Shown in pieces: positions 18,680 to 40,018 of a DNA stretch of 64,000 nucleotides. The position numbers and the translations under genes were made by a program. This DNA is from a phage. The notes below the pieces were generated by a model. It saw only the letters and a list, made by a program, of their open reading frames with translations, did no database searches and was not told where the DNA came from. Each line of letters begins with the position of its first letter. The stretch's first letter is position 1. The stretch is from NCBI GenBank assembly GCA_028130375.1, contig GCA_028130375.1_3658.1; one strand, 5' to 3'.

Positions 18680-18725
18680 TTATTTTTAGATGGCCTTGAC
18701 TTCAGGGCCATCAATAAAGTAAACT
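18680..18725 (+). repeat. repeated 46-bp promoter/stem-loop element, copy 1
   Basis: TTATTTTTAGATGGCCTTGACTTCAGGGCCATCAATAAAGTAAACT: inverted repeat GATGGCC/GGCCATC encloses a -35-like TTGACT, then -10-like TAAACT. Confidence 0.6.
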
Positions 18726-18757: not shown

Positions 18758-18877
18758 ATGAGCACTACACGCCAATACACAAAGGTAACTATTATCGTTT
18801 GCGTTGTCGGTTACATCCTGGCGCAAATGTTAATGAGTAGCGCTAACAGTTTTGCAAAATTTTTCTTAAATTTTTAA
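18758..18877 (+). CDS. small hydrophobic peptide (39 aa)
   Basis: Not in the track; RBS AAAAAGGGGG; MSTTRQYTKVTIIVCVVGYILAQMLMSSANSFAKFFLNF. Confidence 0.3.
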   Translation: MSTTRQYTKVTIIVCVVGYILAQMLMSSANSFAKFFLNF

Positions 18878-22359: not shown

Positions 22360-22582
22360 TGCCACGTTAATTAATCCCTTTAGTGAAGATTTGAAGCCAG
22401 CCGCCTGGCGTGACGGATTCAATAACGAACGCTTTATTTTCAGGCCTGATCTTGAGGAATTTTATAACAATGGATCGAACAACAGCGGAGATAATTTTTC
22501 TTGTGGTGTGTGTCGTGATGGTACTCCTGGGGGCCATTGTAAACCACGTCACTACTACCAGGAGGAAAGGGGGAGACGATGA
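22337..22582 (+). CDS. hypothetical protein (frame choice uncertain)
   Basis: ATG 22337 behind GAGAGG; an overlapping alternative frame (22410-22595) encodes a hydrophobic peptide. Confidence 0.3.
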   Translation: MWANRLNNATLINPFSEDLKPAAWRDGFNNERFIFRPDLEEFYNNGSNNSGDNFSCGVCRDGTPGGHCKPRHYYQEERGRR

Positions 22583-22698
22583 CAACCAAGGATAAGCCAT
22601 GCACCGATAAGGTGCGCCGCGTTATGGTATGGCTTGAGATTATCGCCCTTGAAATATTGCTAGGAGTAGGGATGTACTTTATCGCTGTAAGTAACTAG
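22579..22698 (+). CDS. small hydrophobic peptide (39 aa)
   Basis: Not in the track; strong RBS AGGAGGAAAGGGGGAG; MTTKDKPCTDKVRRVMVWLEIIALEILLGVGMYFIAVSN; followed by a terminator. Confidence 0.35.
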   Translation: MTTKDKPCTDKVRRVMVWLEIIALEILLGVGMYFIAVSN

Positions 22699-22702
22699 GA
22701 AC

Positions 22703-22731
22703 GGCCCCCGATCATGGGGGCCTATCTTTTT
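22703..22731 (+). terminator. intrinsic terminator (GGCCCCC-GATCAT-GGGGGCC, TATCTTTTT)
   Basis: 7-bp GC stem followed by T-tract. Confidence 0.6.
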
Positions 22732-24921: not shown

Positions 24922-25026
24922 ATGAAACAAAAATTAATTGATGCTGTGATCCTGGTTATTGCCCTGGGTATTGGCCTGATTGCAACCATGGCTAATATGA
25001 TCTTGTCTTCCAACGGTATCTGGTGA
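24922..25026 (+). CDS. small hydrophobic peptide (34 aa)
   Basis: RBS AAGAAGAGG; MKQKLIDAVILVIALGIGLIATMANMILSSNGIW. Confidence 0.3.
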   Translation: MKQKLIDAVILVIALGIGLIATMANMILSSNGIW

Positions 25027-25629: not shown

Positions 25630-25764
25630 ATGAGAAAGATAATCATCACCTTGGGGATTGTGGCGGGATCGCTGGCGCTCTTTCCCCTTATGGTTAGGTA
25701 TGTGCTGATCAGTATTGTCCTGGTAGTCAGTGATCTATTGGAAACGGTTGGCACCTTGTTTTAA
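25630..25764 (+). CDS. small hydrophobic peptide (44 aa)
   Basis: ATG 2 nt after upstream stop; two hydrophobic segments. Confidence 0.3.
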   Translation: MRKIIITLGIVAGSLALFPLMVRYVLISIVLVVSDLLETVGTLF

Positions 25765-25779
25765 AGAGCGATAAAAAAA

Positions 25780-25971
25780 ATGAATGTCGAACAAGTTAGA
25801 AAGGTATTGGCGGTACTGCGTTATCATAATCATAGAAAGGTCATAGACGATCCTGATTATGTCGATTCAAACCTGGAAGAGGATACACTACAAGCCATAA
25901 GTAACATGCAAGAATTGCTAAAGCGCATGACAGAGAAAAACCGACCGGACTACATAGGCGAAAAAATATAA
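25780..25971 (+). CDS. hypothetical protein
   Basis: 63 aa ORF. Confidence 0.45.
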   Translation: MNVEQVRKVLAVLRYHNHRKVIDDPDYVDSNLEEDTLQAISNMQELLKRMTEKNRPDYIGEKI

Positions 25972-26031
25972 TATTTATAAACTACAAAACAGGGCTTGCA
26001 ATGGTCCTGTTTTTTGTTATACTTATTCCAC

Positions 26032-26074
26032 GGCAGGCACCTGGCGACGGGGGAGACAATCACCGGGCCTGCCT
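26032..26074. repeat. GC-rich hairpin element related to the 16.9-17.4 kb repeats
   Basis: GGCAGGC..GCCTGCC stem encloses CACCTGGCG and GGGAGACAATCACCGGG, the exact reverse complement of 16923-16939. Confidence 0.5.
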
Positions 26075-26181
26075 GTCATATAAGAACTATAAAAACCGTT
26101 GACATCTGCCATGGGGTGGGGTAACATTTATCTTGAAGGGGCAAAAGTGCCCACACAACAACCAGGAGAGAGGAAAACATT

Positions 26182-26454
26182 ATGTCAAGCTGGATTAATC
26201 AAGAAGTCGAATCACGTTTTAATGCTATATGGGATCTCATCGAAAAAGAGGACGGAACATCAAGCCCCTACCTCAACAATTTGGAATTCCATTTTGTGGA
26301 AGCGATGAACGCAGAACATGATCACGAAGGTGGCGCGGATGAGTTCGCTAAAGGTTATGGCTTTAACAATGCCAACGAAATGATCGAGGCGGTAGTACTC
26401 CAGGCTGAGGAAGATTATCAATTAAAAACGCTTGAATTCTGCCGCCGTAAGTAA
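26182..26454 (+). CDS. hypothetical protein
   Basis: 90 aa; RBS AGGAGAGAGG. Confidence 0.5.
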   Translation: MSSWINQEVESRFNAIWDLIEKEDGTSSPYLNNLEFHFVEAMNAEHDHEGGADEFAKGYGFNNANEMIEAVVLQAEEDYQLKTLEFCRRK

Positions 26455-26514
26455 TAAGATAATGACACGGGCCAAAAGGCCCACTAATCAGAACCACACA
26501 AAGAGAGAAAGAAA

Positions 26515-26733
26515 ATGACAACCCGTAAAATTAAAGTTGTTTGCATTGAATCGACTGGGGGCGCTTTTGTAGTTGGTCAGGAATATAATGCGGTTTTAAT
26601 GGGTACGGATTGGAAGGTTAAAGGCCTTAATGGTTACGAGTACGGCACTACTTGCGGCTTGCGTGGTCGAATCGGATACGTGAGTTTAGACAATAAAGAA
26701 AAATTTGTTTTCGACACCCTTGTGAGTAAATAG
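26515..26733 (+). CDS. hypothetical protein
   Basis: 72 aa; RBS AAAGAGAGAAAG. Confidence 0.5.
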   Translation: MTTRKIKVVCIESTGGAFVVGQEYNAVLMGTDWKVKGLNGYEYGTTCGLRGRIGYVSLDNKEKFVFDTLVSK

Positions 26734-26810
26734 CATGAATTGCTAAAGACTGATCTGCGAACTGCTGTATTATCAACTAATCAAAACGAACCACATAAAG
26801 AGTAAACATC

Positions 26811-27074
26811 ATGAAACGTCTGGATCAGCTTAAATTAGTTCAGTACATGGCCTACAGAATTCTTGAAGTCCAAAAAGGTAGCAAAAAAGAGGTTTGCGAG
26901 AAAGCTTATAAGATCTTTACCCGCAAAAAAGATGACTGGATGCTGCGCCAGACCAAAAAGGCTGACATCTTGGGGTACCTGGAAGAAGAGATCCGCCTTG
27001 AAGAGCAAGAAGAGATCCGCCGTAGTGAGGCAGATTATCAGGCAGCTTGGGAAAGCTGGATGAGTAACAAATAA
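26811..27074 (+). CDS. hypothetical protein
   Basis: 87 aa; an alternative overlapping frame exists. Confidence 0.45.
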   Translation: MKRLDQLKLVQYMAYRILEVQKGSKKEVCEKAYKIFTRKKDDWMLRQTKKADILGYLEEEIRLEEQEEIRRSEADYQAAWESWMSNK

Positions 27075-27139
27075 TACAACAAGTTACGGTCAGGGGGTAA
27101 TAAAGCCCCTTGATCACATAAAAATTATGCTATCCCTGG

Positions 27140-27169
27140 TTGACAGGGATCGGCAGTTTTGCTATATTC
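27140..27169 (+). promoter_or_regulatory. sigma70-like promoter (TTGACA-18-TATATT)
   Basis: -35 at 27140-27145, -10 at 27164-27169. Confidence 0.45.
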
Positions 27170-27217
27170 TTTTTTGAAGGGAAGTTGTAAGAAAATTAAC
27201 TAAGAGGTAAAAACACC

Positions 27218-27637
27218 ATGAACATTAAATCTAATAATCCGGCATATAGCTTTGATAACGCTTTTTGTCACGGTCCGGCGGCGAAAGGATTCGAAATCGA
27301 TGGTAAACTAATTATTGTCAATGTTGACGGGGAAGAGGTTGCAGTATATCCGGTGGCAGACGTAAAAAGTCGTTTACAATGCCGCATGGATGTTACCGCC
27401 TACCAGCTTGATCCGGTCCGCATAGTTGCCCTGGTCCTGGAAGGAGAAATTAAAGCCATGCACCATAGCAACAGGTTTATTGGTGACGCTCAGGATAATA
27501 TGAAAGTATGCCGCCATAAAGTTAATGAAGTGCTTAAAGAGTACGGCTATAAAGATCTTATGATCAAACGTGAGGAAAAATTCCGCTACCGTAACGACCT
27601 GGCAAATCGGATTTTTGAAATATACGAATCATTATAA
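27218..27637 (+). CDS. hypothetical protein
   Basis: 139 aa; RBS TAAGAGG. Confidence 0.55.
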   Translation: MNIKSNNPAYSFDNAFCHGPAAKGFEIDGKLIIVNVDGEEVAVYPVADVKSRLQCRMDVTAYQLDPVRIVALVLEGEIKAMHHSNRFIGDAQDNMKVCRHKVNEVLKEYGYKDLMIKREEKFRYRNDLANRIFEIYESL

Positions 27638-27655
27638 TTTTTAACTGAATTATCA

Positions 27656-27679
27656 AGGGGCTTAGGCCCCTTTCTTTTT
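27656..27679 (+). terminator. intrinsic terminator (GGGGC-TTAG-GCCCC, TTTCTTTTT)
   Basis: Closes the plus-strand arm. Confidence 0.55.
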
Positions 27680-28298
27680 GTCTGCTCTTCCCCCCTACCA
27701 TAAACGGCCCTACCTGGCAAGTGGAATAATTGACGAGCCATCAATCCCACACACTGTACAAATATACATGTAAAATAGCTATTGCATAACCTTTCATTGT
27801 GTGGTAGCGGTGCTATTTTTTACCCGTTTTCCTTCCAAAATTGCACGTAATGCAGTTATTGCACAAAATTTAACCTGATGCACATCTTCAATATCTTGTC
27901 AACAACTAAAAATCTTTATAAGTCATACACTTACACAAACCAAAGAGCGTGTTCTACGTGAAAAATCGAGTATAACTATAGCCGCCAGATCTCAGAATTT
28001 ACGTACGCTCGCCATTCTATAGCCTGCTAAGCATTTATTCCAACCATAGAATAACGGAATAGTCAATACCTGCATAAAATAATTATTCGTGTAAACTGCA
28101 TAACATAAATCAGCTTAGGTGTCAACATTTTTCGTAAACAGTCTGAAATTATCACGGTGAGTTATCATAAACAGAGAAATCTTTAGTCGTCTAATGTTTA
28201 CTGTACGTTACTATACTAACTGAAATCATTAGATGACTAATAGAAAGATAAGAAATAATTAACAATACAATTATTTTATCTGTAACAATAAGGCAACT

Positions 28299-28531
28299 AT
28301 GCAAACGAATGGCATGGCGCGACGGAGTCGCGACATAATATAAAAGCAGTAACCATCACCCCCGTGATAGTTTGTCTGCAAACTATTAATCAGATCATAG
28401 TTGCCTTGTATTTAGTTAATCATGACATAACAAGCAAGGCAACTATAGATCTTCTAATAGTTGCCCTGCTTTTATATTATGTCATAGATTATTAACTTGC
28501 TAATAGTTATCATGCAAACGAATGGCATGGC
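28299..28531. repeat. 20-bp direct repeat pair (ATGCAAACGAATGGCATGGC) flanking GGCAACTAT palindromes
   Basis: Exact copies at 28299-28318 and 28512-28531; AAGGCAACTATAG..CTAATAGTTGCCCT inverted repeats between them. Confidence 0.6.
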
Positions 28532-28544
28532 TTATCATTTCCAT

Positions 28545-28620
28545 GTAAACTGTCAAGGTGTAAACTATCCAGGCGTAAACAGTCTATGCGGGAACAATCT
28601 ATACGTGAACAGTGAAACAT
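28545..28620. repeat. iteron-like array (5 x GTAAAC(A/T)(A/G)TC-like units, about 15-bp period)
   Basis: GTAAACTGTCA, GTAAACTATCC, GTAAACAGTCT, GGAACAATCT, GTGAACAGTG in tandem. Confidence 0.55.
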
Positions 28621-29159
28621 GAAATAATAACAGTCGTTATTGTTCCATATTGTGTCATAGTATGTCACCATTATGTCTAAAGTGTCTAAGGTGTCAGACA
28701 AGTTTTTCTCCTCTTTGTCAAGTGCTGCATGAAAAATTTACAATCTTGTATGGTAGCATTTTTGCGGCCATGTTTACATTCAGCGATGTATGTATAAGCC
28801 TTGTTGTGTGGGCGTTTAGACGTCTAGACGGTTGGAAGTCCACAGGTCAATATCTAATCTATCGGCTGCTAACTATATCCCACACAAATAGTAATAAATA
28901 TAATTGTTATATGCGTAAACAGTAACTCATGTTATCAATCCCTGTATGTATCGCCAGTGGTGCGCATAATGGGTATTATGTTAAATTGCCCGTAATGATA
29001 ACAGTTCTCACAATGATAGGTATTCTCATTCATCCACACAAAATAGGTTGCAAATGTTGTGCCACTGTGTGAACGGCCTGGCCTATTAATTTCTCTCACT
29101 GCCTCGATATTTGAGAATTGTTATAAGAATGAGAAGTATTCCCATTCCGTCCGCCTGGC

Positions 29160-29470
29160 AGCGCTCCTGTAGGTCCTGCAAGGACTCTAGCTGAAAGCTA
29201 GACCCTTCGGGCCTCCCTGTAGGTCAGGTCAAAATCGTGGCAGAACTGAGCCTGTTCAGATATTTCTGGCTGACTCTTCAGGTCTGTGTGGGAAAAGCCA
29301 ACCTCTCCGGCGGGGCAGGGGGAGGTCAATTAAAAAATTTACGTGGTGTATGAAGCGCTCTTCAGGTAAGGCAGGTATTATGGGATGAAACCCTCTTCAG
29401 GCAATGATATTTGTGGGTGTGATATTTGCTGGAAAGCCAGATATGACGGGACTCCCGGCGGGGCAGGGGT
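29160..29470. repeat. degenerate repeat cluster (CCGGCGGGGCAGGGG x2, CTCTTCAGG x3, CCTGTAGGTC x2)
   Basis: Exact 15-mers at 29306-29320 and 29454-29468 plus short recurring words; no convincing ORF. Confidence 0.5.
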
Positions 29471-30165
29471 AGTACAGACAGGGAAAATATGAGAATGTAG
29501 TTGGGGAAATTGATCAGACAGGTAGAGTATGGAATATGTTACAAGTATGTTAAATATGGAGGTTGAATATCTGTAGGATTTGTGTGTAAAATCAAAGACT
29601 TAAGGGGTGTTGTGGTATTTTCTATAAATAATTCAAGTTTAATAGGCAATATTTGTCTCTATCCGCTTTGTGTGGTAAACAGATTCAGATTAGATTGGTT
29701 TACAAGTGTATACATAATATACAAATTAAAGATACAAGAAACCCCCCTCCCCCCTTCGGCTACCATTCACCTTTTCCTCTGACTGGTACTTAAACACTTA
29801 TTCAGACTCTTCAGGTTATCACCCATATATCATATGGCAGTGACTGGTGTCCTCCGGCCCCTCTTTCGTCACCCGTCCGCTTCGCCATGCTAATGCCATA
29901 GCTAATGGTTCGGTTGTTCACCCTGTTCACTCAGGTGTATCTCTATACCCCTTCAAACCGAAGAGAACAGAAAACCCGAATTACTCGGTAAAAGAAAAGA
30001 GAAGAACTTAATTTTATCAGGATAGGCAAGAATGTCAAGGCATGACTGCTCACTAAACAAGCAAACAGTCATGTGTGGGAGGTAAGTGATTGTGGTGGTA
30101 GGAAATTTAGTTGAAAGATGTGTTATAGGTGCTTCCAGCACTTTAGCCGGGCAGCTAATTGTGTG

Positions 30166-30381
30166 TCAGTCCAGCGGTTCATCCTCTACTTCACTGAAAT
30201 CAATGTTCATGGTCTCTTCCCAACCATCGATCTCAGCACAAGAGTGGAGTTCTTTAGGGTTTACTCCCAAAGCCTCAGCAACAGAGTCTATATTTAACAC
30301 CTCTGGCAGGTATGATTCATCGAATTCAAGGTAAATCAGGCCACGAGTGTTGTCAGCTCCACCAAATATCTCTATCTTCAT
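30166..30381 (-). CDS. hypothetical protein
   Basis: 71 aa acidic ORF. Confidence 0.45.
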   Translation of the reverse strand: MKIEIFGGADNTRGLIYLEFDESYLPEVLNIDSVAEALGVNPKELHSCAEIDGWEETMNIDFSEVEDEPLD

Positions 30382-30502
30382 AAAATCTCCTCTGGGAATG
30401 AAAGTGTGAACAGGGTTTTATACGTTCTAATGCACAGGAATTATACACGTTTGCCTCTTCAGGCCATGCTTTAGCATGAGGAACCTGTGTGGGCTCGGTG
30501 CT

Positions 30503-30715
30503 TCATAGTCTACCACCTCTGAACTCTTCGTGCTCAGGCATAATAGAGAACCAGATATCTACGATGTCCTCCCACGTCAGGTCATCAGCCTCAGGATCTG
30601 TCTGGGACGAAGATGAAGAGTCCTCAGAATCTAAGTTTTCCTCTTTAACTGGCTCATCCAAGGGACATATGGTCACTCCTTCGGATGTCTCTTCAGATGC
30701 ATGTGTGTTGATCAT
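30503..30715 (-). CDS. hypothetical acidic protein
   Basis: 70 aa ORF. Confidence 0.45.
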   Translation of the reverse strand: MINTHASEETSEGVTICPLDEPVKEENLDSEDSSSSSQTDPEADDLTWEDIVDIWFSIMPEHEEFRGGRL

Positions 30716-30813
30716 GTTCCACCCGTGAGTATTCCGGCAACAGCCGCTATGGAAGTAATGATCATCAGGATCACCACTAAAACTTCAGACAATGTTCTCA
30801 TTGTGTATTCCAT
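30712..30813 (-). CDS. small hydrophobic peptide (33 aa)
   Basis: Not in the track; SD GGAG; stop overlaps next start (ATGA); MEYTMRTLSEVLVVILMIITSIAAVAGILTGGT. Confidence 0.3.
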   Translation of the reverse strand: MEYTMRTLSEVLVVILMIITSIAAVAGILTGGT

Positions 30814-30833
30814 ATTCTCCAAACTGTGTGTGG

Positions 30834-30862
30834 ATACTATCACGGGAGCGGTAATGTGTCAA
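30834..30862 (-). promoter_or_regulatory. sigma70-like promoter on minus strand (TTGACA-17-TAGTAT)
   Basis: TGTCAA at 30857-30862, ATACTA at 30834-30839 on the plus strand. Confidence 0.45.
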
Positions 30863-31020
30863 CAGAAACGCCGCGAGGGTTTGGTTAAAATCCGAGCGTA
30901 TGGTGATTTGGGTCAAAACGGACGTGCGTTCTCGCTACGCTCGAAAGAGAGATTTGTTTGTAGGAAGCTCTTAAACGCTCTGTAATGAGATTATCTGTCC
31001 AAGGTATGCAATCGTGCACC

Positions 31021-31050
31021 AGATAAAGAAAAGGACGCCACAGAGCGTCC
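31021..31050 (-). terminator. intrinsic terminator (minus strand)
   Basis: GGACGC..GCGTCC hairpin followed on the minus strand by TTTTCTTTATCT. Confidence 0.5.
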
Positions 31051-31075
31051 TAGGTGTCTTAAATTTGATATTTTG

Positions 31076-31387
31076 CTATACCCATGAGGGCTTATCAAGG
31101 TTGGAGTAGCTGAAAGGTGTCAAAAGGTGACTGTCAAAATCTCTCAAACTATCTAAATCTTTTTCCTCGTCCTGACACCATCTGTGCCTACATTTATTGT
31201 TGTAGTGCATAGAATGCATAGCGTTCTGCAATTTAACAGGCACAAGTGATTCAGGAGTAGATAGTATTGTTGGGTATGCCAGAACCACCTCAAACAGTGG
31301 AAACACATCGAAACTAAAGTCTACCTCTGCAGAGGTTGATGGCATGTAAGAGTATTTAGCCGCCTTTGTAGACATAATCCACCTCAC
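31076..31387 (-). CDS. hypothetical protein
   Basis: 103 aa ORF. Confidence 0.5.
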   Translation of the reverse strand: MRWIMSTKAAKYSYMPSTSAEVDFSFDVFPLFEVVLAYPTILSTPESLVPVKLQNAMHSMHYNNKCRHRWCQDEEKDLDSLRDFDSHLLTPFSYSNLDKPSWV

Positions 31388-31710
31388 ACAGGTTTGATAA
31401 TACCTTTACCGAATAACTCTTCGTATCTAATCTTATCCGGATCCCACTCCTGGATAATTTCGAAGACAATATCCAACCCTGGGATAATCACTTCTCCAGT
31501 GTCGAGCTTAGCAAGAACAAAACCGGAAGGTTGAATGGTTTCCCAGTTGCGCCGATTGGAATAGAAGACCTCGAAAATATCGCCGACCTTTATCTGTTGA
31601 TCAAGATGTTCAAGATTCTCTTTCATATAGACGCAGCGGATTTTTCGTGCAGGCCATAGACCACCTGCATCACGTTCATTTAGCTCTTTTACAGTGATTG
31701 GTATACCCAT
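31384..31710 (-). CDS. hypothetical protein
   Basis: 108 aa ORF; ATGA coupling. Confidence 0.5.
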   Translation of the reverse strand: MGIPITVKELNERDAGGLWPARKIRCVYMKENLEHLDQQIKVGDIFEVFYSNRRNWETIQPSGFVLAKLDTGEVIIPGLDIVFEIIQEWDPDKIRYEELFGKGIIKPV

Positions 31711-31730
31711 CTCAAATCTCCTTCATAGAT

Positions 31731-31756
31731 AGTAAAAAGAGGGGCCCAAGCCCCTC
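31731..31756 (-). terminator. intrinsic terminator (GAGGGGC-loop-GCCCCTC, T-tract on minus strand)
   Basis: Hairpin 31739-31756 preceded on the plus strand by AGTAAAAA. Confidence 0.5.
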
Positions 31757-31765
31757 TCTTTGTCA

Positions 31766-32071
31766 TTATTCTACAGAGCGTTTGAACAGAATGTCTGCCT
31801 CAGACATGTGCTCAACCTCTTCTTCGATTTTAGCGCGACGTTTTTCAGCCTCATAGCGAATATCGAACTCGGTAGCCACCAGAGATTTGATGAATTTAGG
31901 AGAATACAGGTGATCCTGCTTCTCAACGAGAATGATATCCTTAATGGCATCTTTCAGATCTTTAATCTGAAGTTGGAGTTCTACCAGTTCTTCGATTGTT
32001 TTGCGAAGGCGATCACGCTCTGCAGTGTCAGAAGGAAGAGAGGTGAACAGTTCAACTTTAGATTTAGCCAT
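31766..32071 (-). CDS. hypothetical coiled-coil protein
   Basis: 101 aa, charged helical composition. Confidence 0.5.
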   Translation of the reverse strand: MAKSKVELFTSLPSDTAERDRLRKTIEELVELQLQIKDLKDAIKDIILVEKQDHLYSPKFIKSLVATEFDIRYEAEKRRAKIEEEVEHMSEADILFKRSVE

Positions 32072-32099
32072 AGTAAGAGTCTCCTTATGTTGTTTTAAA

Positions 32100-32351
32100 T
32101 TAACGTTCTACAAAAATACCGTTCAGTTCAATAACCAGGAATTTCTGGTCTTCACTATCGTCTCGTGCCAGCACCTCACAGACGTATCGGTCATCCCCAT
32201 CATCATCGCAGTCAAATACAAGACTGAGGACTTTATCATGGTAAACCTTCGCCACTACCGCCTCGTAAGTATTGCCGATTGTGAATCCAAGATAATCTCC
32301 GATGCATTTGACAACAACATGGTCTCCAGCATTTAAGTCAATCTTCGTCAT
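32100..32351 (-). CDS. hypothetical protein
   Basis: ATG 32351 behind AAGGAG chosen over TTG 32417. Confidence 0.5.
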   Translation of the reverse strand: MTKIDLNAGDHVVVKCIGDYLGFTIGNTYEAVVAKVYHDKVLSLVFDCDDDGDDRYVCEVLARDDSEDQKFLVIELNGIFVER

Positions 32352-32478
32352 TACTGCGCTCCTTGGGTAATAATACTGTATGTAAAACTTTAACCAGAGA
32401 TGTGAATAACGCCCCAAAACACACCGATAGCGCTAAAACAGACAAGGCCATCATTAAAGCTTCAGTAAAATCAGTCAT
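32338..32478 (-). CDS. small hydrophobic peptide (46 aa)
   Basis: Not in the track; RBS AAGAGGTGAGGA; MTDFTEALMMALSVLALSVCFGALFTSLVKVL.. Confidence 0.3.
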   Translation of the reverse strand: MTDFTEALMMALSVLALSVCFGALFTSLVKVLHTVLLPKERSNDED

Positions 32479-32506
32479 TCCTCACCTCTTGTTAGTCACT
32501 ATACTA

Positions 32507-32770
32507 TCATTTATCCTTGTCGTCAAGAACTTTTTTAAATCTTTCAGGGATATCTCCCGTTCTTAGATAGTTCATGACCTCGCAAGGTTCCCACTTGAAT
32601 TTCTTACAGAGCAGGGCGGCTGAGATTGTTTCATTGCGAAAAGAAAGGATATTAATATCCCACTCTGAGAACCCCAACTTCCGAAGGGTAGCTACAGAAA
32701 TCCTCACCGCAACCCAGCAGCAAAAACATGCAACAAACGCCACTGCTACAACCCACATCAGGATGTTCAT
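32507..32770 (-). CDS. putative membrane protein
   Basis: 87 aa; N-terminal hydrophobic ..MWVVAVAFVACFCCWVAV..; RBS AAGGTG. Confidence 0.5.
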   Translation of the reverse strand: MNILMWVVAVAFVACFCCWVAVRISVATLRKLGFSEWDINILSFRNETISAALLCKKFKWEPCEVMNYLRTGDIPERFKKVLDDKDK

Positions 32771-32779
32771 ATAAGCACC

Positions 32780-32863
32780 TTACTGAAATACAAGACACAG
32801 TGTTAAGGTTACTGACCAGCAAATAATTAACAGTGCCGTTGCAACCTTGGCAAGATTTATCAT
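32780..32863 (-). CDS. small hydrophobic peptide (27 aa)
   Basis: ATGA overlap with upstream stop; MINLAKVATALLIICWSVTLTLCLVFQ. Confidence 0.25.
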   Translation of the reverse strand: MINLAKVATALLIICWSVTLTLCLVFQ

Positions 32864-33147
32864 AGTGCCTCTAAGATTTCATATCCTTCGGGTCGGAATA
32901 CAAGCCACTCCGTGGCTCCGTTTGGTCGATACGCTTTATACAGAACAACCTGGTCTCGGCACATGCACATGGCTACATAGTTTTCATCCACACCTGCAGC
33001 CTGCATTGCATCTTCTTCTCCGGCAACTGCTTTGCTTACAACTTCCTTGGTAGGCAGGTGTGCGATCAGCTCGTCACCATCATTAATTCCAAAATGGCTG
33101 AGTTCGCCGTTGGTATCTTTAATCTTAATCTTAACCAGATCTTTCAT
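32860..33147 (-). CDS. hypothetical protein
   Basis: 95 aa ORF. Confidence 0.5.
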   Translation of the reverse strand: MKDLVKIKIKDTNGELSHFGINDGDELIAHLPTKEVVSKAVAGEEDAMQAAGVDENYVAMCMCRDQVVLYKAYRPNGATEWLVFRPEGYEILEAL

Positions 33148-33476
33148 TAGTCTTCCCCCAGGTTCAAAGGTCCTAAGATTTCATATGCCAGATTAGAAGT
33201 TACAAGAGGGTCTTCTGCGTCTTTAGTATTATACCACCCGTGAATAACCAGAGCCCCACTTTGTTTCATGTCCAACTGGAACTCTTCTGCCGTTTCCTCA
33301 TCCAGCTCCAAGATTTCCATAAGGTATTTGATGTTAGGGAGGTATGCAGCTGTTACAGTCCCCTCTACCAGACCTTCAGGCCAACCTACATCTGGATGAC
33401 AAGTAGGAACCAGGTTGGTCAGCTTAATGGTGTACGCTTTTTCTGCACGAGCCTTCAGTAACGGGTCAATCTTCAT
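33147..33476 (-). CDS. hypothetical protein
   Basis: 109 aa ORF. Confidence 0.5.
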   Translation of the reverse strand: MKIDPLLKARAEKAYTIKLTNLVPTCHPDVGWPEGLVEGTVTAAYLPNIKYLMEILELDEETAEEFQLDMKQSGALVIHGWYNTKDAEDPLVTSNLAYEILGPLNLGED

Positions 33477-33826
33477 TATTCGTCCTCCTCTTCGGTACCT
33501 GCTTCCAGTAATAAGTTAAGAATATCTTCTGCACAAGGTTCATAGAACTCTTGGCCTTCATTATCGATGATTTTGTAGTCATCTCCACGAATAATCAGGG
33601 GATCACTCTCAAAATTATCGAGACCTTTAACAACGACAACACGATCGATTGCCATCATTGTAAGAACTTTATCGACATCTTCCTCTGCTACACCATACTG
33701 CAGCAGAATGTCTTTGGTAGGAGGAACAGCATCCACCACAACGCCGTTACCAAAACCTTCTGGAAGTTTAGCTAAAATATCTTCCGGAACCACATTCACA
33801 TCAAAACCGGTAATTTCTACTTTCAT
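33476..33826 (-). CDS. hypothetical acidic protein
   Basis: 116 aa ORF. Confidence 0.5.
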   Translation of the reverse strand: MKVEITGFDVNVVPEDILAKLPEGFGNGVVVDAVPPTKDILLQYGVAEEDVDKVLTMMAIDRVVVVKGLDNFESDPLIIRGDDYKIIDNEGQEFYEPCAEDILNLLLEAGTEEEDE

Positions 33827-34087
33827 TTACAGCACCTCTTCGTCAACTACTTCATAAAAATGGCCTGGGATTGCAATAGCGTTCTCACCTTCACCTACAA
33901 ACACAGTTCCGTCAAGAATCAACATCATAAGAATTTCTGTAATATCCTCTTCCGGAACGTTGCCAAAACCTTTAATCAGCTCGTAGGTTGGAATATTTAC
34001 CTCTAAGATGTCACCATCTTTAGAACGGAAATCAACACCGTCCTGAATCTCTGCCGTTTCAAGGTTTTTCAATTTAATCTTCATCAA
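33827..34087 (-). CDS. hypothetical protein
   Basis: 86 aa ORF. Confidence 0.5.
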   Translation of the reverse strand: MMKIKLKNLETAEIQDGVDFRSKDGDILEVNIPTYELIKGFGNVPEEDITEILMMLILDGTVFVGEGENAIAIPGHFYEVVDEEVL

Positions 34088-34163
34088 TCGGTCCCCTGTC
34101 TTGTTAAGATGAAGGTATTATTTCACACAGGGTTGGCGTTGTCAACACCTGTGTGCAAGAAAA

Positions 34164-34559
34164 TTACTGAAACAGTGCGGATAAATTACCTTCTGGTGGG
34201 AACTTATCTGCCAAAAACGGTGTTAGCACAGTAGCCTTCTGAAGATCTGGGGTCCACTCGTTGTTCAGAACATCCCAGTAGTACGCAATGTTGCTGTGTG
34301 GGTGCCGCATTACGAACTTTTTCCCTTCGTAGTCATCTGAAACCTCTACAGAAGAAATAACAACAGAATCTTCAAGGGTTTCTTCATAGAAAGATCCACC
34401 TTCAAATTTCCAACGAGATGCAAGAGCCCCTGCCTTGAACGCTGCAGATAACGGACTGTCGGCAAGAACATACATTTCTTGCACTCTGTCGCTGCGATCT
34501 TTGCTTCTTACGTTGTATACAGTATCTGAGCTATACTCAACACGGTATAGGCTTACCAT
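34164..34559 (-). CDS. hypothetical protein (paralogue of 36371-36769)
   Basis: Shares ..(V/R)HP(D/H)S..YW....(T/E)WTP.. with 36371-36769. Confidence 0.5.
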   Translation of the reverse strand: MVSLYRVEYSSDTVYNVRSKDRSDRVQEMYVLADSPLSAAFKAGALASRWKFEGGSFYEETLEDSVVISSVEVSDDYEGKKFVMRHPHSNIAYYWDVLNNEWTPDLQKATVLTPFLADKFPPEGNLSALFQ

Positions 34560-34891
34560 TACCGCACCTCCTCAATAACTTCCACATCTGAACCTACCAC
34601 AAATGCAAAAGGACAGGTTTCATGAAAGATATCCGGATCGCCGCCAAGCTTGCTAACAATTTCTCCACCACTAATAAACACAAGCTCACCGATATTCATC
34701 AGATTGCTGAAATAGTACCCATAATGATTAAAGAATGCAGCAGGGTCAGGTAGACTAGTAGCCTCAAGCACTACATCGGTTGAGGTTACTTTCTTATCAT
34801 AACCTCTCGCCTTTTGAGATGCAAGATCTGCAGAATCCTCAGGCGACCGGAGATGCATAGGAATTGTTTCACCAATAAAGCGTACTTTCAT
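34559..34891 (-). CDS. hypothetical protein, MKVK-type small paralogue family
   Basis: ATG 34891 (MKVRFIG..) chosen over TTG 34918; C-terminal ..FVVGSDVEVIEE.. resembles 36782-37036. Confidence 0.45.
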   Translation of the reverse strand: MKVRFIGETIPMHLRSPEDSADLASQKARGYDKKVTSTDVVLEATSLPDPAAFFNHYGYYFSNLMNIGELVFISGGEIVSKLGGDPDIFHETCPFAFVVGSDVEVIEEVR

Positions 34892-34895
34892 ATTA

Positions 34896-35159
34896 TCACC
34901 CAACAACCATAGCTTCAAAAGGAGTCATGAACGAATAAACGGCATCATCATCTGCTTCAGGGAATGCTCCCAAAGACTTCATATCTGAGCCCTTGACAAA
35001 TACAAGGTTTTGATCAAAGGCTTCTTGGGGGTCAATCCGATACATATTTCGTAAAATATCGCTTACCTCCTCATCAAGAGGTGAGTATGCTGTGCACGTT
35101 TTTCCGATCAAGCTTTGAGAATCAGGGTATCCACCTGAAGTTTTAAAATAAACAATCAT
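34896..35159 (-). CDS. hypothetical protein
   Basis: 87 aa ORF. Confidence 0.45.
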   Translation of the reverse strand: MIVYFKTSGGYPDSQSLIGKTCTAYSPLDEEVSDILRNMYRIDPQEAFDQNLVFVKGSDMKSLGAFPEADDDAVYSFMTPFEAMVVG

Positions 35160-35250
35160 ATAGTATCACCTCTGGTAAGAGATTGGGACTCCTTTCCCAC
35201 AAATAATTACAAATCTTCCTTAGCGAGGAAGTATGCTAATCCAAGCAGGA

Positions 35251-35520
35251 TTATTCCTCTACAATCTCATACACATCAGGAGTTACAATCAACTCTTCTC
35301 CGTTACCCGGTGCAACAAACACCACCAAACCTTCAGGTGTGTGCTTTTTAGCCATCTCGATAACATCTTCTCGCAGAGCTGGCTCCATCAGATCAAAACC
35401 TTCACCTAGGGCATCACGAACCACCTTCATATAGTCCACTGGTTGTGCTTCAACAATCATGCCTTCAACCAGTCCACAATTTTTGTCTGCCAGCTCAGTT
35501 TGGAATAATTTAATTTTCAT
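35251..35520 (-). CDS. hypothetical protein
   Basis: 89 aa ORF. Confidence 0.5.
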   Translation of the reverse strand: MKIKLFQTELADKNCGLVEGMIVEAQPVDYMKVVRDALGEGFDLMEPALREDVIEMAKKHTPEGLVVFVAPGNGEELIVTPDVYEIVEE

Positions 35521-35546
35521 TTAGAGGTCTCCTCAATTATTTGATA

Positions 35547-35648
35547 TTAATAGCCGTAACCTAACACATTAACTACAACTGCGATTGCAAACATAATTTC
35601 AAAGCATGCAATCTCTACATTTGGGACTAATTTCTTAATCACACCCAT
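35547..35648 (-). CDS. small hydrophobic peptide (33 aa)
   Basis: Not in the track; RBS GGAGAATGAGGTG; MGVIKKLVPNVEIACFEIMFAIAVVVNVLGYGY. Confidence 0.3.
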   Translation of the reverse strand: MGVIKKLVPNVEIACFEIMFAIAVVVNVLGYGY

Positions 35649-35657
35649 TGTAGCACC

Positions 35658-35978
35658 TCATTCTCCAAAGTCAATCTTTACTTTGCCTTTCCCCTTACCT
35701 TTCTTTCCACCGCATTTAGCCAGCTGACGTGCTGCAACATCTACCATACGGTCAGTTGCCTCGTAAGCATCACTGCCTTTAGCCTTGGCAATAACTTCTT
35801 TTCCAGAATTGTCAAAAATGAACGCCATAACTTCCTGGTGATCATTTTCAACTTTTACACTCACACGTGCATAGTTAACAGAGGGATGTAAACGCTCCAG
35901 CTTGGACATTTTGCGGGAAATAAAAGATACCATACCTTCTGTGATTTCTACATTGTTGCCAGTGATTTCAATTTGCAT
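35658..35978 (-). CDS. hpf: ribosome hibernation promoting factor / RaiA (S30AE family) homologue
   Basis: 106 aa; MQIEITGNNVEITEGMVSFISRKMSKLERL.. closely parallels bacterial HPF (MQLNITGNNVEIT..AKLEQ..) and ..AARQLAK.. matches ..LARQLTK..; own promoter and RBS. Confidence 0.8.
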   Translation of the reverse strand: MQIEITGNNVEITEGMVSFISRKMSKLERLHPSVNYARVSVKVENDHQEVMAFIFDNSGKEVIAKAKGSDAYEATDRMVDVAARQLAKCGGKKGKGKGKVKIDFGE

Positions 35979-36027
35979 AACGTGTTCCTTTTAAGGAAGA
36001 GGGAATAACTATCTCTCTTTGAAAACA

Positions 36028-36056
36028 ATGATACTAAATCTGAAGCGTTGTGTCAA
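36028..36056 (-). promoter_or_regulatory. sigma70-like promoter on minus strand (TTGACA-17-TATCAT) upstream of hpf
   Basis: TGTCAA at 36051-36056 and ATGATA at 36028-36033 on the plus strand. Confidence 0.5.
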
Positions 36057-36062
36057 CAGTTT

Positions 36063-36353
36063 TTACAGCTTGTTGTCGATAGTTTTTAAAATATCCACAG
36101 CAAGATCTGCCATTTTTCGAACATACTCTGCAAACTCAACAGGATCCTTGATCAAAGAATTCACAGGGTCGTACCCTAGAGCGTTTAAAATGGCTGCAGC
36201 ATCTACAACCTTCTCATCATTTGCGAAGATCTCTCCGTCAAACTTGTAGGTCCATTTCGAGTCAACCTTAGCAGAGCAGGGTTTGTCCATGCTTGTTACA
36301 CTATCGTCTTTAAACTCTCCTGCGTTATCAATATTTAGAATTAAATCCATCAT
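36063..36353 (-). CDS. hypothetical protein
   Basis: 96 aa ORF. Confidence 0.5.
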   Translation of the reverse strand: MMDLILNIDNAGEFKDDSVTSMDKPCSAKVDSKWTYKFDGEIFANDEKVVDAAAILNALGYDPVNSLIKDPVEFAEYVRKMADLAVDILKTIDNKL

Positions 36354-36370
36354 GGTGACACCTCACTGTT

Positions 36371-36769
36371 TCAGTTTAGCTTTTCTTCAACAACCCCATA
36401 ACTTGGGGCAGAGTCAAGAGCTTTCTGGTTTAAAAGTGGCGTAGCAGAATCTGCAAACGGTGTCCAAGTTTTTGTTCTGGCATTCCAGTAATGCTTCACT
36501 CTGGAATCTGGATGCACTATAACAAAAACTTTTTCACTTGTCAACACATTAATTTCTTCTACACCCTTGCTGATAATTTCTCCGTCATAGCCCCCAGTCT
36601 GGTATCCTTCGTACCAGGTTCTTGCATAGGCATAGCCAGCCTGCCAGCATGCAGCCTCCTCCGAGGTGGAGACTACGTAGAAGTCTTTCTCAAATTCTGG
36701 AACACGCCCTTGCTTTACGCTCCAAGCCCCGCGAATTTTCATTGTAACTTTAAACAGTTTATTTTTCAC
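36371..36769 (-). CDS. hypothetical protein (paralogue of 34164-34559)
   Basis: 132 aa; ..VHPDSRVKHYWNARTKTWTPF.. Confidence 0.5.
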   Translation of the reverse strand: MKNKLFKVTMKIRGAWSVKQGRVPEFEKDFYVVSTSEEAACWQAGYAYARTWYEGYQTGGYDGEIISKGVEEINVLTSEKVFVIVHPDSRVKHYWNARTKTWTPFADSATPLLNQKALDSAPSYGVVEEKLN

Positions 36770-36781
36770 AACGGTTACCCA

Positions 36782-37036
36782 TCACAGCTCTACAATATCT
36801 GCATCTGACCCTACCCCAAAGGCATAGTAGGACTCTTCCCCGAAATAATATTCAGGTGCACCAGCGGTGATCAGGTCTGATCCCAAGATAAACACCACGT
36901 TGTGGCCTACATAACTGTGATGTTGCCGCACAGGATCATCCCACGGCAACCCTTCAAAGTATACCGCAGGAACGACCTTTCCATTCAGGAAGGATTGTCC
37001 CAAGTAGATGTTAGAATCAAGAATTTTAACCTTCAT
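36782..37036 (-). CDS. hypothetical protein, MKVK-type small paralogue family
   Basis: MKVKILDSNIYLGQ..DLITAGA.. Confidence 0.5.
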   Translation of the reverse strand: MKVKILDSNIYLGQSFLNGKVVPAVYFEGLPWDDPVRQHHSYVGHNVVFILGSDLITAGAPEYYFGEESYYAFGVGSDADIVEL

Positions 37037-39389: not shown

Positions 39390-39589
39390 CCCTCATCGCA
39401 CGTCTGATATAACCACTCTATAAAATCTTGATACCATTCGCCCTCTGAGCGCTCCGTAGGCCAATAATCTTCACCCTCTCGTGCATTAAAATCTGAGTAT
39501 TCAACTTTCCACTCCTTTACCAGCTCGTGGAGAAGGTTTTCAGCCTGCTCTAAAGATTTATTTTTTACCATTGCTGTCTCCTTTTTCAA
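39386..39589 (-). CDS. hypothetical protein
   Basis: 67 aa ORF. Confidence 0.45.
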   Translation of the reverse strand: MKKETAMVKNKSLEQAENLLHELVKEWKVEYSDFNAREGEDYWPTERSEGEWYQDFIEWLYQTCDEG

Positions 39590-39790
39590 GATAGTTATAC
39601 ATCAGAACTGCACCACCTAAGATGGCTACCAGTAACAATATCCCAGATAGCATCTCAATAAACATGGCTTGAAACACTGGAAGGTCTCCCTAAATTAACG
39701 CACCATTTTAAATACATGCTCTTTTCCCATAAAGGTGCCTGGCTAAGATCTGCGTAGAACGCAATCTCTTTAAGAACAGTATAGATAGTT

Positions 39791-40018
39791 TTAGGTGCGG
39801 TCTCCATCCCTACTCTCCTTCCTGATATTCTTGTAGTAATCAACTAGGCACATTATTACGATGAAGATAACAACAGGCCAAAAAGGTGCAGCAGTGATGA
39901 TGGTGATAAAATCATCAAACTTCACCCTTCGTCTGGACACGATGCATACACCTGTCAAGAATACCGCTGTTATAACGGACATTACCAGGTAACCTATTAG
40001 CACAACATTTATACTCAT
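39791..40018 (-). CDS. putative membrane protein
   Basis: 75 aa; two hydrophobic segments. Confidence 0.45.
   Translation of the reverse strand: MSINVVLIGYLVMSVITAVFLTGVCIVSRRRVKFDDFITIITAAPFWPVVIFIVIMCLVDYYKNIRKESRDGDRT

Follow-up and report, generated by a model that had tools for sequence, protein, structure and literature searches.

Very short genes for hydrophobic single-helix peptides in two gene clusters of an rV5-like Escherichia coli phage

Hydrophobic open reading frames (ORFs) of only a few dozen codons recur between the larger genes of a 64,000-nucleotide stretch of phage DNA (hereafter the window), which raises the questions of whether they are genuine genes and, if so, whether they belong together. 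The window is that of a Vequintavirus, an rV5-like E. coli phage, with 99.3% identity to Murica over positions 30000-36000, and the ORFs sit in two divergently transcribed, promoter-rich clusters of small genes. The coordinates, strands, and lengths of the eight ORFs listed in a preliminary description were all reproduced exactly (Table 1), as was the single hydrophobic stretch of at least 19 residues in all eight peptides, for which the best-window mean Kyte-Doolittle hydropathy (19-residue window) was 2.03-2.95. A ninth such ORF, 39558-39677, was absent from that list. Good Shine-Dalgarno sequences had been attributed to the ORFs in general; seven of the eight had one (a match of at least 4 nt within positions -17 to -4, P = 1.4e-5 given a base rate of 15% for any ATG in the window), but ORF 25630 had none. 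Similarly, the ATGA or short overlaps with flanking genes were found for four of the eight, whereas three others were nearby (2-15 nt) and one was isolated. Genes in these clusters are generally packed closely, so overlap and tight spacing are not peculiar to the tiny genes.

Table 1. Positions of the tiny hydrophobic ORFs and of the promoter and terminator sites around them
Feature	Position	Strand	Peptide (aa)	PHROG (E)	rV5 match (aa)	Context
ORF	30712..30813	-	33, MEYTMRTLSEVLVVILMIITSIAAVAGILTGGT	34195 (4e-21)		Stop overlaps (ATGA, 30712/30715) start of acidic 70-aa gene 30503-30715
ORF	32338..32478	-	46	16755 (4e-36)	gp156 (46)	Overlaps 83-aa gene 32100-32351 by 14 nt (32338/32351)
ORF	32780..32863	-	27, MINLAKVATALLIICWSVTLTLCLVFQ	none		Unannotated; start overlaps (ATGA, 32863/32860) stop of 95-aa gene 32860-33147; ends 9 nt before 87-aa membrane-protein gene 32507-32770
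ORF	35547..35648	-	33, MGVIKKLVPNVEIACFEIMFAIAVVVNVLGYGY	15151 (4e-26)	gp145 (33)	Starts 9 nt after ribosome-hibernation-factor homologue 35658-35978; 26 nt before gene 35251-35520
ORF (ninth)	39558..39677	-	39	15251 (6e-22)	gp131 (39)	GTG start; overlaps both neighbouring genes
ORF	18758..18877	+	39	16391 (4e-31)	gp193 (39)	Isolated; 80-nt and 79-nt flanking gaps, each with promoter-like site
ORF	22579..22698	+	39	13629 (2e-32)	gp181 (39)	Start overlaps (ATGA, 22579/22582) 81-aa gene 22337-22582; last ORF ahead of strong terminator
ORF	24922..25026	+	34	14631 (9e-23)	gp173 (46)	Ends 9 nt before gene 25036-25251
ORF	25630..25764	+	44	16005 (6e-27)	gp170 (44)	Starts 2 nt after stop of 94-aa gene 25343-25627; 15 nt to downstream neighbour
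Sigma-70-like promoter	30834..30862	-				TTGACA-17-TAGTAT, TG before -10; just upstream of 30813 start
Sigma-70-like promoter	32498..32526	-				TTGACG-17-TATAGT; just upstream of 32478 start
Sigma-70-like promoter	18696..18725	+				TTGACT-18-TAAACT; upstream of 18758 start
Next promoter	18878-18905	+				Begins directly after stop of 18758-18877
Promoter-like site	35647..35674	-				TTGACT-16-TACAAT; pattern match only; -10 hexamer overlaps ATG at 35648
Intrinsic-terminator-like hairpin	22703..22722	+				8 pairs (7 GC), then T run; 5 nt past 22579 ORF stop

Hydrophobicity was concentrated in the small ORFs between genes. Eight of the 22 gap ORFs, defined as same-strand ORFs of 25-50 aa with an ATG start between larger genes, reached a hydropathy of at least 2.0. 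The same threshold was reached by four of the 186 ORFs that lay within a gene or antisense to one (Fisher P = 1.6e-6) and by 1.1% of ORFs in shuffled sequence. Within the same clusters, nine of about 13 tiny genes were hydrophobic as against about five of 62 larger ones (P = 9e-6).

Conservation in related phages, which the preliminary description had proposed as a check, was borne out, with the reading frames intact in every Vequintavirus relative fetched. Pooled dN/dS was 0.32 (pN/pS 0.36) in frame versus 0.73 and 1.6 in the other two frames, and when the changes were compared with a relocation null, 83 of 179 were nonsynonymous where 122 were expected (z = -6.5), while the hydropathy shift was also lower than expected (z = -6.5). 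Six ORFs were individually significant at P < 0.03 by nonsynonymous count: 30712 (changes among nine alleles distributed 3/7/11 over the three codon positions, P = 0.029), 32338 (23 nucleotide changes relative to a divergent relative, mostly synonymous, P = 0.010), 18758 (8/1/14, P = 0.005), 22579 (5/2/13, P = 0.0005), 24922 (P = 0.007), and 39558, for which 10 of 11 changes relative to the divergent relative fell at third positions; 25630 was significant at the same level by hydropathy conservation (P = 0.015). Across relatives the helix cores were invariant or showed conservative I/V/L/A exchanges only, and an ATG-to-GTG start swap was seen, with 32338 beginning with GTG in two relatives. 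We conclude that these ORFs are real coding genes, that their products are hydrophobic micro-proteins with a single helix, and that purifying selection acts on both their amino-acid sequence and their hydrophobicity.

The arrangement of several of the genes could also suit leader or spacer cistrons, for which the act of translation would serve the neighbouring gene and the peptide itself would be irrelevant. No ORF intervenes between a promoter and 30712 or 32338, both of which extend into the start of a larger gene. For 32780, 24922, and 25630, the following gene starts 9-15 nt past the stop and has its Shine-Dalgarno sequence at that stop. However, selection on the peptide residues and their hydrophobicity, together with the restricted changes in the helix cores, argues against this interpretation, as do 18758, which has no neighbour within 79 nt, and the terminal position of 22579. 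Hydrophobicity in all nine cases would also be unexplained for a coupling device, and we regard this explanation as very improbable.

Substitution patterns gave no individual support for 32780 (P = 0.39) or 35547 (P = 0.28, a test with little power), and for these two only it could be asked whether they are instead a promoter, 5' leader, RNA element, or other non-coding intergenic DNA that is by chance open and T-rich at the second codon position. ORF 32780-32863 was intact in 10 distinct alleles, with changes lacking third-position bias (5/5/6), and it fills an 89-nt gap, a normal intergenic length in these clusters. Codons 11-33 of 35547-35648 were nearly invariant at the nucleotide level, divergent relative included, the predicted RNA fold had z = -2.4, and since the -10 hexamer of the promoter-like site lies on the ATG, transcripts from that site would start inside the ORF. 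Against this, no other intergenic gap of these clusters held a same-strand hydrophobic ATG ORF of at least 25 aa. At the position of 32780, the divergent contig L012, at only 50% nucleotide identity, retains a hydrophobic ORF of 27 codons whose start overlaps through GTGA (P = 0.016 for being open and hydrophobic by chance), suggesting selection on a hydrophobic peptide there rather than on a nucleotide element. Similarly, 35547 has a well-spaced GAGGTG Shine-Dalgarno sequence, shares the hydrophobicity of the seven better-supported ORFs, and has changes clustered in N-terminal residues 2-10. The chance that these two are non-coding thus seems slim.

Although the eight ORFs had been described as missed, it was only the first-stage ORF track, with its 60-aa limit, that lacked them, and seven of the eight are present in GenBank, UniRef, and PHROGs. 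ORF 30712-30813 is annotated as Murica gp132 and MaxBurger bas54_0138, and the exact sequence of 35547-35648 occurs on 753 contigs. A long ORF in another frame across 30712-30813, annotated in JEP1 and HMD-6, was considered and rejected, as a stop codon breaks that frame in the window. The sole unannotated ORF is the 27-codon 32780-32863, the other tiny genes being already known; of 115 records, 60 were sampled, and those among them that are annotated show no feature under it, and its exact peptide was not present in a collection of 15 billion proteins. The rV5 products matching five of the eight listed ORFs in size and position are labelled 'membrane protein, 1 TMD' (Kropinski et al. 2013, Virol J 10:76, Table S3), as are the match of the ninth ORF and gp173, at the position corresponding to 24922-25026; TMHMM/Phobius was used for these calls (Kropinski et al. 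2013, Virol J 10:76). Membrane targeting is a prediction, drawn from hydropathy and these rV5 calls. No mass-spectrometry evidence marks stand on these products in rV5 Table S3, and a search for transcriptome, Ribo-seq, or proteome data on these ORFs found none for any Vequintavirus.

The preliminary description also saw in the number of these ORFs a deliberate set, a view that did not hold. The peptides lack mutual similarity, eight of the nine were assigned to eight different PHROG families (all of unknown function), the genes are scattered over the two clusters, and sister phages lack some of them or carry different alleles. The nine peptide genes are neither paralogues nor a coordinated module. 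Single-helix peptides dominate the under-50-aa class of bacterial small proteins generally and are no peculiarity of this phage. The ORF families were restricted to rV5-like and phAPEC8-like phages, with 24922 and 25630 sharing 55-70% amino-acid identity with copies in Phapecoctavirus, a different subfamily. ORF 24922-25026 occurs in two allelic types, the second of which is also found in Phapecoctavirus, and its C-terminal ATMANMILSS(N/H)GI is invariant. The family of 25630-25764, which is 70% identical to its Phapecoctavirus copy, has only 3 cluster representatives among 1.84 billion proteins and a conserved motif, MVR(Y/H)VLI..VL.VSDL, with R23 and D35 invariant. Among the other peptides, that of 32338-32478 is acidic at the N-terminus and, past its one hydrophobic helix, ends in a charged tail (KERSNDED), and that of 22579-22698 has a basic N-terminus and two Glu residues within the helix.

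Because the clusters are rich in sigma-70-type promoters, the ORFs are most likely made early by the host RNA polymerase and ribosomes, a timing suggested by promoter consensus. The rV5 authors likewise described '88 mainly small ORFs' in this region, along with 33 promoters extensively homologous to the E. coli consensus (Kropinski et al. 2013, Virol J 10:76). We think it fairly probable that these are nine separate genes for early peptides with a single transmembrane helix that reside in the inner membrane, each independently modulating membrane proteins or the membrane. Each gene would yield a peptide of 27-46 residues, little beyond one transmembrane helix with short polar ends, translated as the first cistron after a promoter for 30712, 32338, and 18758 and probably by re-initiation at or near the preceding gene's stop for 32780, 22579, and 25630. 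The peptides would then insert into the E. coli inner membrane, for which the 27-aa YohP offers a precedent, and each alone may bind a host or phage membrane protein or alter the membrane, with host take-over, exclusion of other phages, or defence evasion as likely purposes. Gene context gives no clue to the targets, because all neighbours lack known function, and a role as independent early modulators of inner-membrane proteins is our best guess by analogy.

In size and composition the peptides also fit type I toxins such as Hok, TisB, Ibs, and Ldr, and could act by membrane damage, with depolarisation serving host shutdown or abortive and exclusion roles. A preprint reports that small hydrophobic peptides such as the 27-aa YohP depolarise membranes when overproduced (bioRxiv 10.1101/2025.05.06.652344). 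We consider this unlikely for the window peptides, since no toxin family in Pfam or NCBIfam matched at E <= 1, nine early depolarisers made from strong promoters would probably drain energy that the phage needs, and conserved polar motifs (R23/D35 in 25630; ATMANMILSS in 24922) suggest specific contacts.

Small size, a single transmembrane helix, and charged ends would likewise be compatible with components of lysis timing (holin, antiholin, pinholin-like, or spanin-like), a role implied by the preliminary description when it proposed lysis-timing effects as a check. Two of the genes have a candidate holin nearby: the BASEL annotators call gene 21988-22359 (123 aa, two helices), located two genes before 22579, a 'putative holin', and the same label is given to rV5 gp129, the counterpart of a 75-aa two-helix gene (39791-40018) two genes upstream of 39558 (Kropinski et al. 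2013, Virol J 10:76). Both labels are themselves putative, however, and the ORF that corresponds by position and size to the rV5 lysin gp89 (156 aa), 61640-62110, is 22-43 kb from all nine, which are located among early genes with sigma-70 promoters. Pfam, NCBIfam, and PHROGs yielded no match to holin or spanin families for any of the ORFs. To our knowledge, 27-46 aa with one helix is shorter than any known holin class, and a role in lysis timing appears quite improbable.

The closest known counterparts of the window ORFs are in rV5 itself, where gp131, gp145, gp156, gp170, gp173, gp181, and gp193 have the same position and neighbours and, in six of the seven, the same size, the exception being gp173 (46 aa versus 34 aa for 24922-25026). 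In rV5 there is no feature at the position of 32780-32863 and no annotated equivalent of 30712-30813, at about whose place synteny would put the 101-aa gp162 (Table S3). Like the window peptides, holins and the lysis peptides that small phages encode in a single gene are short and have at least one transmembrane helix and charged termini, but the window ORFs differ in being neither beside the lysin nor in a late operon and in matching no holin family. Bacterial small membrane proteins of up to 50 aa, among them AcrZ, MgrB, MgtS, and KdpF, are similarly built of one transmembrane helix and a few polar residues, which leaves no room for a catalytic fold, but the window peptides have no Pfam or NCBIfam similarity and are encoded by a phage in an early cluster. 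Where the function of such bacterial proteins is known, they bind larger membrane proteins. For E. coli YohP, 27 residues have been shown to suffice for SRP-dependent insertion (PMC7549839). Among phages, the early protein Gp11 of Staphylococcus phage PhiNM1 binds MurG and DivIC (PMC11237401), and the 51-aa Ac of T4 is assumed to interact with AcrAB-TolC (PMC13250531). The window peptides have no homology to either, and the likeness is one of functional analogy only, but Gp11 and Ac, as small membrane proteins of the early or non-essential phage gene set that act on host envelope machinery, provide the working model that we adopt for the nine peptides described here.

The eight tiny hydrophobic ORFs of the preliminary description were all found where it had placed them, and a ninth, 39558, was added (each ORF is named here by one window coordinate; see the table). 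Across the nine, the peptides are 27-46 aa long, within the limit of 50 residues used for small single-pass membrane proteins, and the best 19-residue Kyte-Doolittle window has a mean of 2.03-2.95 in every case, in agreement with the single hydrophobic helix that had been proposed. Start signals and gene contacts were less uniform than claimed. Seven of the eight ORFs said to have good Shine-Dalgarno sequences do carry such a motif at a workable distance (P = 1.4e-5, given a base rate of 15% before any ATG in the window), whereas 25630 has none and begins 2 nt past the stop codon of the preceding gene; the ninth ORF has GGGAG upstream of its start codon. Overlap with neighbours, likewise attributed to the group, held for 30712, 32338, 32780 and 22579, whereas three further ORFs lie 2-15 nt from a neighbour without overlapping it and 18758 is isolated, with gaps of about 80 nt on both sides.

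Tiny hydrophobic ORFs and other features of the window, with rV5 counterparts assigned by position, neighbours and size
Feature	Coordinates	Strand	Size	Overlap (partner)	Helix-flanking charges	rV5 counterpart
ORF 18758	18758-18877	+			N-terminal side, RQYTK	gp193, 39 aa
ORF 22579	22579-22698	+		ATGA (upstream gene)	N-terminal side, KDK..KVRR	gp181, 39 aa
ORF 24922	24922-25026	+	34 aa		N-terminal side, KQK	gp173, 46 aa, at this position
ORF 25630	25630-25764	+			N-terminal side, RK	gp170, 44 aa
ORF 30712	30712-30813	-		ATGA (downstream gene)		
ORF 32338	32338-32478	-		14 nt (downstream gene)	C-terminal lysines	gp156, 46 aa
ORF 32780	32780-32863	-	27 codons	ATGA (upstream gene)	N-terminal side, K6	
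ORF 35547	35547-35648	-	33 aa		N-terminal side, KK	gp145, 33 aa
ORF 39558 (ninth, GTG start)	39558-39677	-	39 aa	both neighbours	C-terminal lysines	gp131, 39 aa
Gene directly after ORF 32780	32507-32770	-	87 aa			
Ribosome hibernation factor homologue (HPF/RaiA, S30AE family), phage-encoded	35658-35978	-				
Two-helix gene	39791-40018		75 aa			gp129
Tiny non-hydrophobic ORF	45084-45197	-				
Tiny non-hydrophobic ORF	45730-45846	-				
Lysin candidate	61640-62110		156 aa			gp89 (lysin; by position and size)
ORF-free block	27640-30165		about 2.5 kb			
Repeat copies in the block	28283-28515					
Exact inverted repeat	28332-28349 / 28466-28483		18 nt			

The abundance of such ORFs exceeds what chance would supply. 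When every ATG-started ORF of 25-50 aa in the six frames was scored against a hydropathy cut-off of 2.0, the cut-off was reached by 8 of 22 coding-strand ORFs in gaps between larger genes and by 4 of 186 lying inside or antisense to genes (Fisher P = 1.6e-6); in shuffled sequence the proportion was 1.1%. Within the same gene clusters, 9 of about 13 tiny genes are hydrophobic against about 5 of 62 larger ones (P = 9e-6). The observation of tiny hydrophobic ORFs is correct and statistically solid. The same screen brought out the ninth ORF and a few tiny non-hydrophobic ones. A pair of the latter amid the nrd genes, 45084-45197 and 45730-45846, has perfect AGGAGG Shine-Dalgarno sequences; one encodes a 37-aa Lys-rich peptide and the other a 38-aa peptide with a zinc-ribbon-like CxC...CxxC cysteine pattern.

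These genes had been described as overlooked, yet seven of the eight are annotated coding sequences in at least one GenBank record (Murica, BASEL phages, FV3, A51.2 and others), and the exact sequences of those seven are present in NCBI/UniRef. In rV5 itself, gp131, gp145, gp156, gp170, gp173, gp181 and gp193 are listed as 'membrane protein, 1 TMD' on the basis of TMHMM/Phobius (Kropinski et al. 2013, Table S3; PMC3606486). Eight of the nine ORFs gave full-length profile matches (E = 4e-21 to 4e-36), each to another PHROG family of unknown function (34195, 16755, 15151, 15251, 16391, 13629, 14631 and 16005), and there were no cross-matches, which argues against a coherent or deliberate set and led us to reject paralogy as the sense in which the genes are recurrent. 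Against known small-protein and toxin families in Pfam and NCBIfam nothing was found at E <= 1 except sub-threshold matches to YqzM, LPAM_1 and a Mycoplasma lipoprotein signal, which we dismissed as meaningless. For 25630, Pfam DUF7396 (PF24129) was considered and set aside, as the window copy gave no match and the gathering threshold of 27 bits was not reached; three relatives of this ORF have full-length scores of 13-18 bits (E = 0.004-0.11, sub-threshold), so that the link may serve as a lead only.

Conservation of the reading frames, one of the checks named in the preliminary description, was found throughout: in about 20 related loci drawn from GenBank phages, IMG/VR and metagenomes, all ORFs are intact in every Vequintavirus with the region. 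When IMG/VR was scanned for two anchor proteins, 10 loci were obtained, of which only three contigs are close relatives of the window and one of these three is divergent; the metagenome scan returned the same divergent contig together with close copies. Substitutions within the helices are I/V/L/A exchanges, and 32338 starts with GTG in place of ATG in two phages. In the claimed frame pooled pN/pS was 0.36 (dN/dS 0.32); the two other frames gave 0.73 and 1.6. When each observed base change was relocated to another site with the same base, 83 of the 179 changes were nonsynonymous where 122 were expected (z = -6.5), and the summed hydropathy change did not reach half the expected value (z = -6.5). 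Six ORFs passed individually at P <= 0.03 (30712, 32338, 39558, 18758, 22579 and 24922) and 25630 passed on hydropathy (P = 0.015), so that purifying selection on the frame as protein is evident in the pooled data and in seven of the nine ORFs taken singly. Four rival readings are made less likely by the data, though not conclusively so for every ORF. One is an origin of these frames in chance or regulatory DNA. Another is that of leader peptides or uORFs translated for the sake of translation alone, in which position would be conserved and the peptide free to vary: both peptide sequence and hydrophobicity are constrained here, and for two of the ORFs the next gene downstream is at least 79 nt away. 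Together these results show that the nine ORFs, two of them less firmly than the rest, are real genes for single-helix peptides that are mutually unrelated; the proposal of membrane micro-protein genes was right as to hydropathy and selection and wrong as to a coherent or overlooked set.

Three of the loci have histories of their own. Both 24922 and 25630 have counterparts in Phapecoctavirus, a member of a different subfamily, at 55-70% amino-acid identity. The motif MVR(Y/H)VLI..VL.VSDL is invariant in the 25630 family, which is narrow: a set of 1.84 billion proteins contains just three of its cluster representatives. A word-indexed protein search and a full HMMER search of these representatives found no member beyond these phages. 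The 24922 gene occurs either as MKQKLIDAV... or as MLEKIFTVV..., allelic types that are about 55% identical to each other and both end in an invariant ATMANMILSS(N/H)GI; the second is common to Vequintavirus and Phapecoctavirus, which suggests exchange between the subfamilies. Across the 33-aa ORF 30712-30813 a long TTG-started ORF in another frame is annotated in JEP1 (13771-14130 of the fetched locus, JEP1_131) and HMD-6 (847-1236). That frame is broken by a stop in the window, leaving the hydrophobic frame as the conserved one, and the longer calls are probably wrong; rV5 gp162 (101 aa) may be a call of the same kind.

Two ORFs are weaker cases when taken alone. For 35547, which varies little in sequence and offers few substitutions, the relocation test gave P = 0.28; codons 11-33 are nearly invariant, including at the nucleotide level, a promoter-like site (TTGACT-16-TACAAT) places its -10 hexamer on the ATG, and the RNA of the region folds mildly better than shuffles (z = -2.4). 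We nevertheless regard it with good confidence as likely to be a real gene. For 32780 the changes within the genus fall 5/5/6 over the codon positions, with no third-position bias (P = 0.39), and the argument that its gap must be coding is weakened by the finding that gaps of 55-93 nt are normal in these clusters whether or not a promoter is detectable; its own gap is 89 nt. No other same-strand hydrophobic ATG-started ORF of at least 25 aa occurs in any intergenic gap of the clusters. In the divergent lineage represented by IMG/VR contig 3300010279, where the proteins flanking this spot are 86% and 78% identical to those of the window, the spot holds a 27-codon ORF (VMNMSKVVTAALVITIISTVLLCVFGH) with a hydropathy of 2.73 and a GTGA overlap with the upstream stop. 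Nucleotide identity between the two ORFs is only 50%, and random placement of the same 40 changes on 32780 left an open and hydrophobic frame in 1.6% of trials (P = 0.016). On this evidence 32780 is probably a real gene, a judgement we hold a little less firmly than that on 35547, and one that appears to evolve fast, with flanking genes 80% identical between the same lineages. Common gene callers have a 90-nt minimum, and the 84 nt of 32780 fall short of it, which explains its absence from annotations: in a sample of 60 records out of 115, none of the annotated ones has a feature over it, no PHROG profile matches it, and a collection of 15 billion proteins lacks its exact sequence. This conserved 27-codon gene, missing from every sampled deposited Vequintavirus annotation, is the sole new item here. 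The gene directly after it, 32507-32770, starts with an N-terminal transmembrane helix (MNILMWVVAVAFVACFCCWVAV...), so two membrane proteins are encoded back to back.

Escherichia phage Murica shares 99.3% identity with the window between 30000 and 36000, a region matched by 120 phage records, nearly all Vequintavirus (rV5-like myoviruses); between 18000 and 26000 identity to the same phages is 92-95%, and the Phapecoctavirus match is patchy at 80-87%. About 18-24 unannotated records, MG0656xx and others, bear the name 'Campylobacter phage' and give C. jejuni as host. Their identity to this E. coli rV5-like phage is 94-99%, and they appear to be mislabelled or to stem from contamination. Large plus-strand genes occupy 1-16 kb; small genes on the same strand are clustered between about 16.5 and 27.6 kb, and from about 30.2 kb a minus-strand cluster of small genes runs into nucleotide-metabolism genes. 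The block at which these early clusters diverge, and where the GC skew turns, holds no credible ORF in either direction and gave neither tRNA nor Rfam matches. The rV5 genome has the same layout, with '88 mainly small ORFs' and an ORF-free region at 104013-106618 marked 'non-coding' on its map (PMC3606486). Within the block ATAGTTGCC(C/T)TG recurs several times, both directly and inverted, besides the 18-nt inverted repeat, making it a candidate iteron-like region and a putative replication origin or regulatory hub.

Both clusters are rich in near-consensus sigma-70-type promoters (65 found, 44 +/- 7 expected), the matches at 10-11 of 12 positions being mostly intergenic, and in terminator-like hairpins (38 against 17 +/- 4 expected). 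Promoter-like sites lie just upstream of the starts at 30813, 32478 and 18758, and a strong terminator-like hairpin lies 5 nt past 22698, the end of 22579. Over 17001-37000 such promoters (TTGACA-16/17-TATACT and similar, 10-11 of 12) are found in most of the 55-93-nt gaps, so that many cluster genes appear to have their own promoter. This pattern fits early transcription by the host polymerase, and the rV5 authors took the same view of the promoter-rich region (PMC3606486). The ten genes flanking the tiny ORFs all belong to PHROGs of unknown function except the ribosome-hibernation-factor homologue beside 35547, for which tblastn against the phage collection matched 119 records, 118 of them rV5-like and one from Salmonella enterica at 42% identity. 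We found no transcriptomic, Ribo-seq, localisation or functional work on these genes in the Vequintavirus literature, and rV5 Table S3 marks mass spectrometry evidence for none of these products.

A third rival reading is a role in lysis timing, as for holins. Two genes upstream of 39558 is the two-helix gene 39791-40018; its counterpart in rV5 was labelled 'putative holin' by the rV5 authors. The data count against this reading for the tiny ORFs, as PHROGs, Pfam and NCBIfam gave no holin or spanin family match, the lysin candidate 61640-62110 is 22-43 kb away, and the ORFs sit among sigma-70-like promoters. Depolarising peptides resembling type I toxins (Hok/Gef, Ldr, Ibs, TisB, ShoB, DinQ) are likewise disfavoured: no Pfam or NCBIfam family matched at E <= 1, and the window contains no Rfam family anywhere. 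A reading of the window as RNA elements was set aside too, no Rfam family and no tRNA having been detected.

Most of the helices carry positive charges at one end, and by the positive-inside rule for membrane topology these predict an N-in orientation for six and C-in for two. The peptides would insert into the inner membrane, and each would work by itself, affecting membrane proteins or the bilayer. Tentatively, and with more doubt than belief, we consider that the nine could form a toolkit in which each peptide specifically inhibits or adapts, helix to helix, some inner-membrane machine of E. coli, with the 27-codon gene 32780 in an arms race with its target. If so, the targets might include transporters, the divisome, lipid II enzymes, proteases and membrane-bound defence systems, and the peptides could be called natural 'protein antibiotics', 27-46 residues long. 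What is established is more modest: the tiny membrane genes of rV5-like phages are known and annotated but functionally unexplored, small single-helix proteins being ordinary in these genomes and in phage early regions generally, and the quantitative evidence indicates that the existing annotations are real genes under selection and not gene-caller noise. The nine genes offer a clean short list for functional screens of phage micro-proteins, for which the BASEL phages Bas48-59 on E. coli K-12 provide a tractable host system.

Precedents for the proposed action of the rV5-type peptides are found in Gp11, a small membrane protein made early by the staphylococcal phage PhiNM1, which binds MurG and DivIC (PMC11237401), and in T4 Ac, which is assumed to interact with AcrAB-TolC (PMC13250531). 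For the peptides themselves a precedent is E. coli YohP, a protein of 27 aa whose membrane insertion is aided by SRP (PMC7549839).
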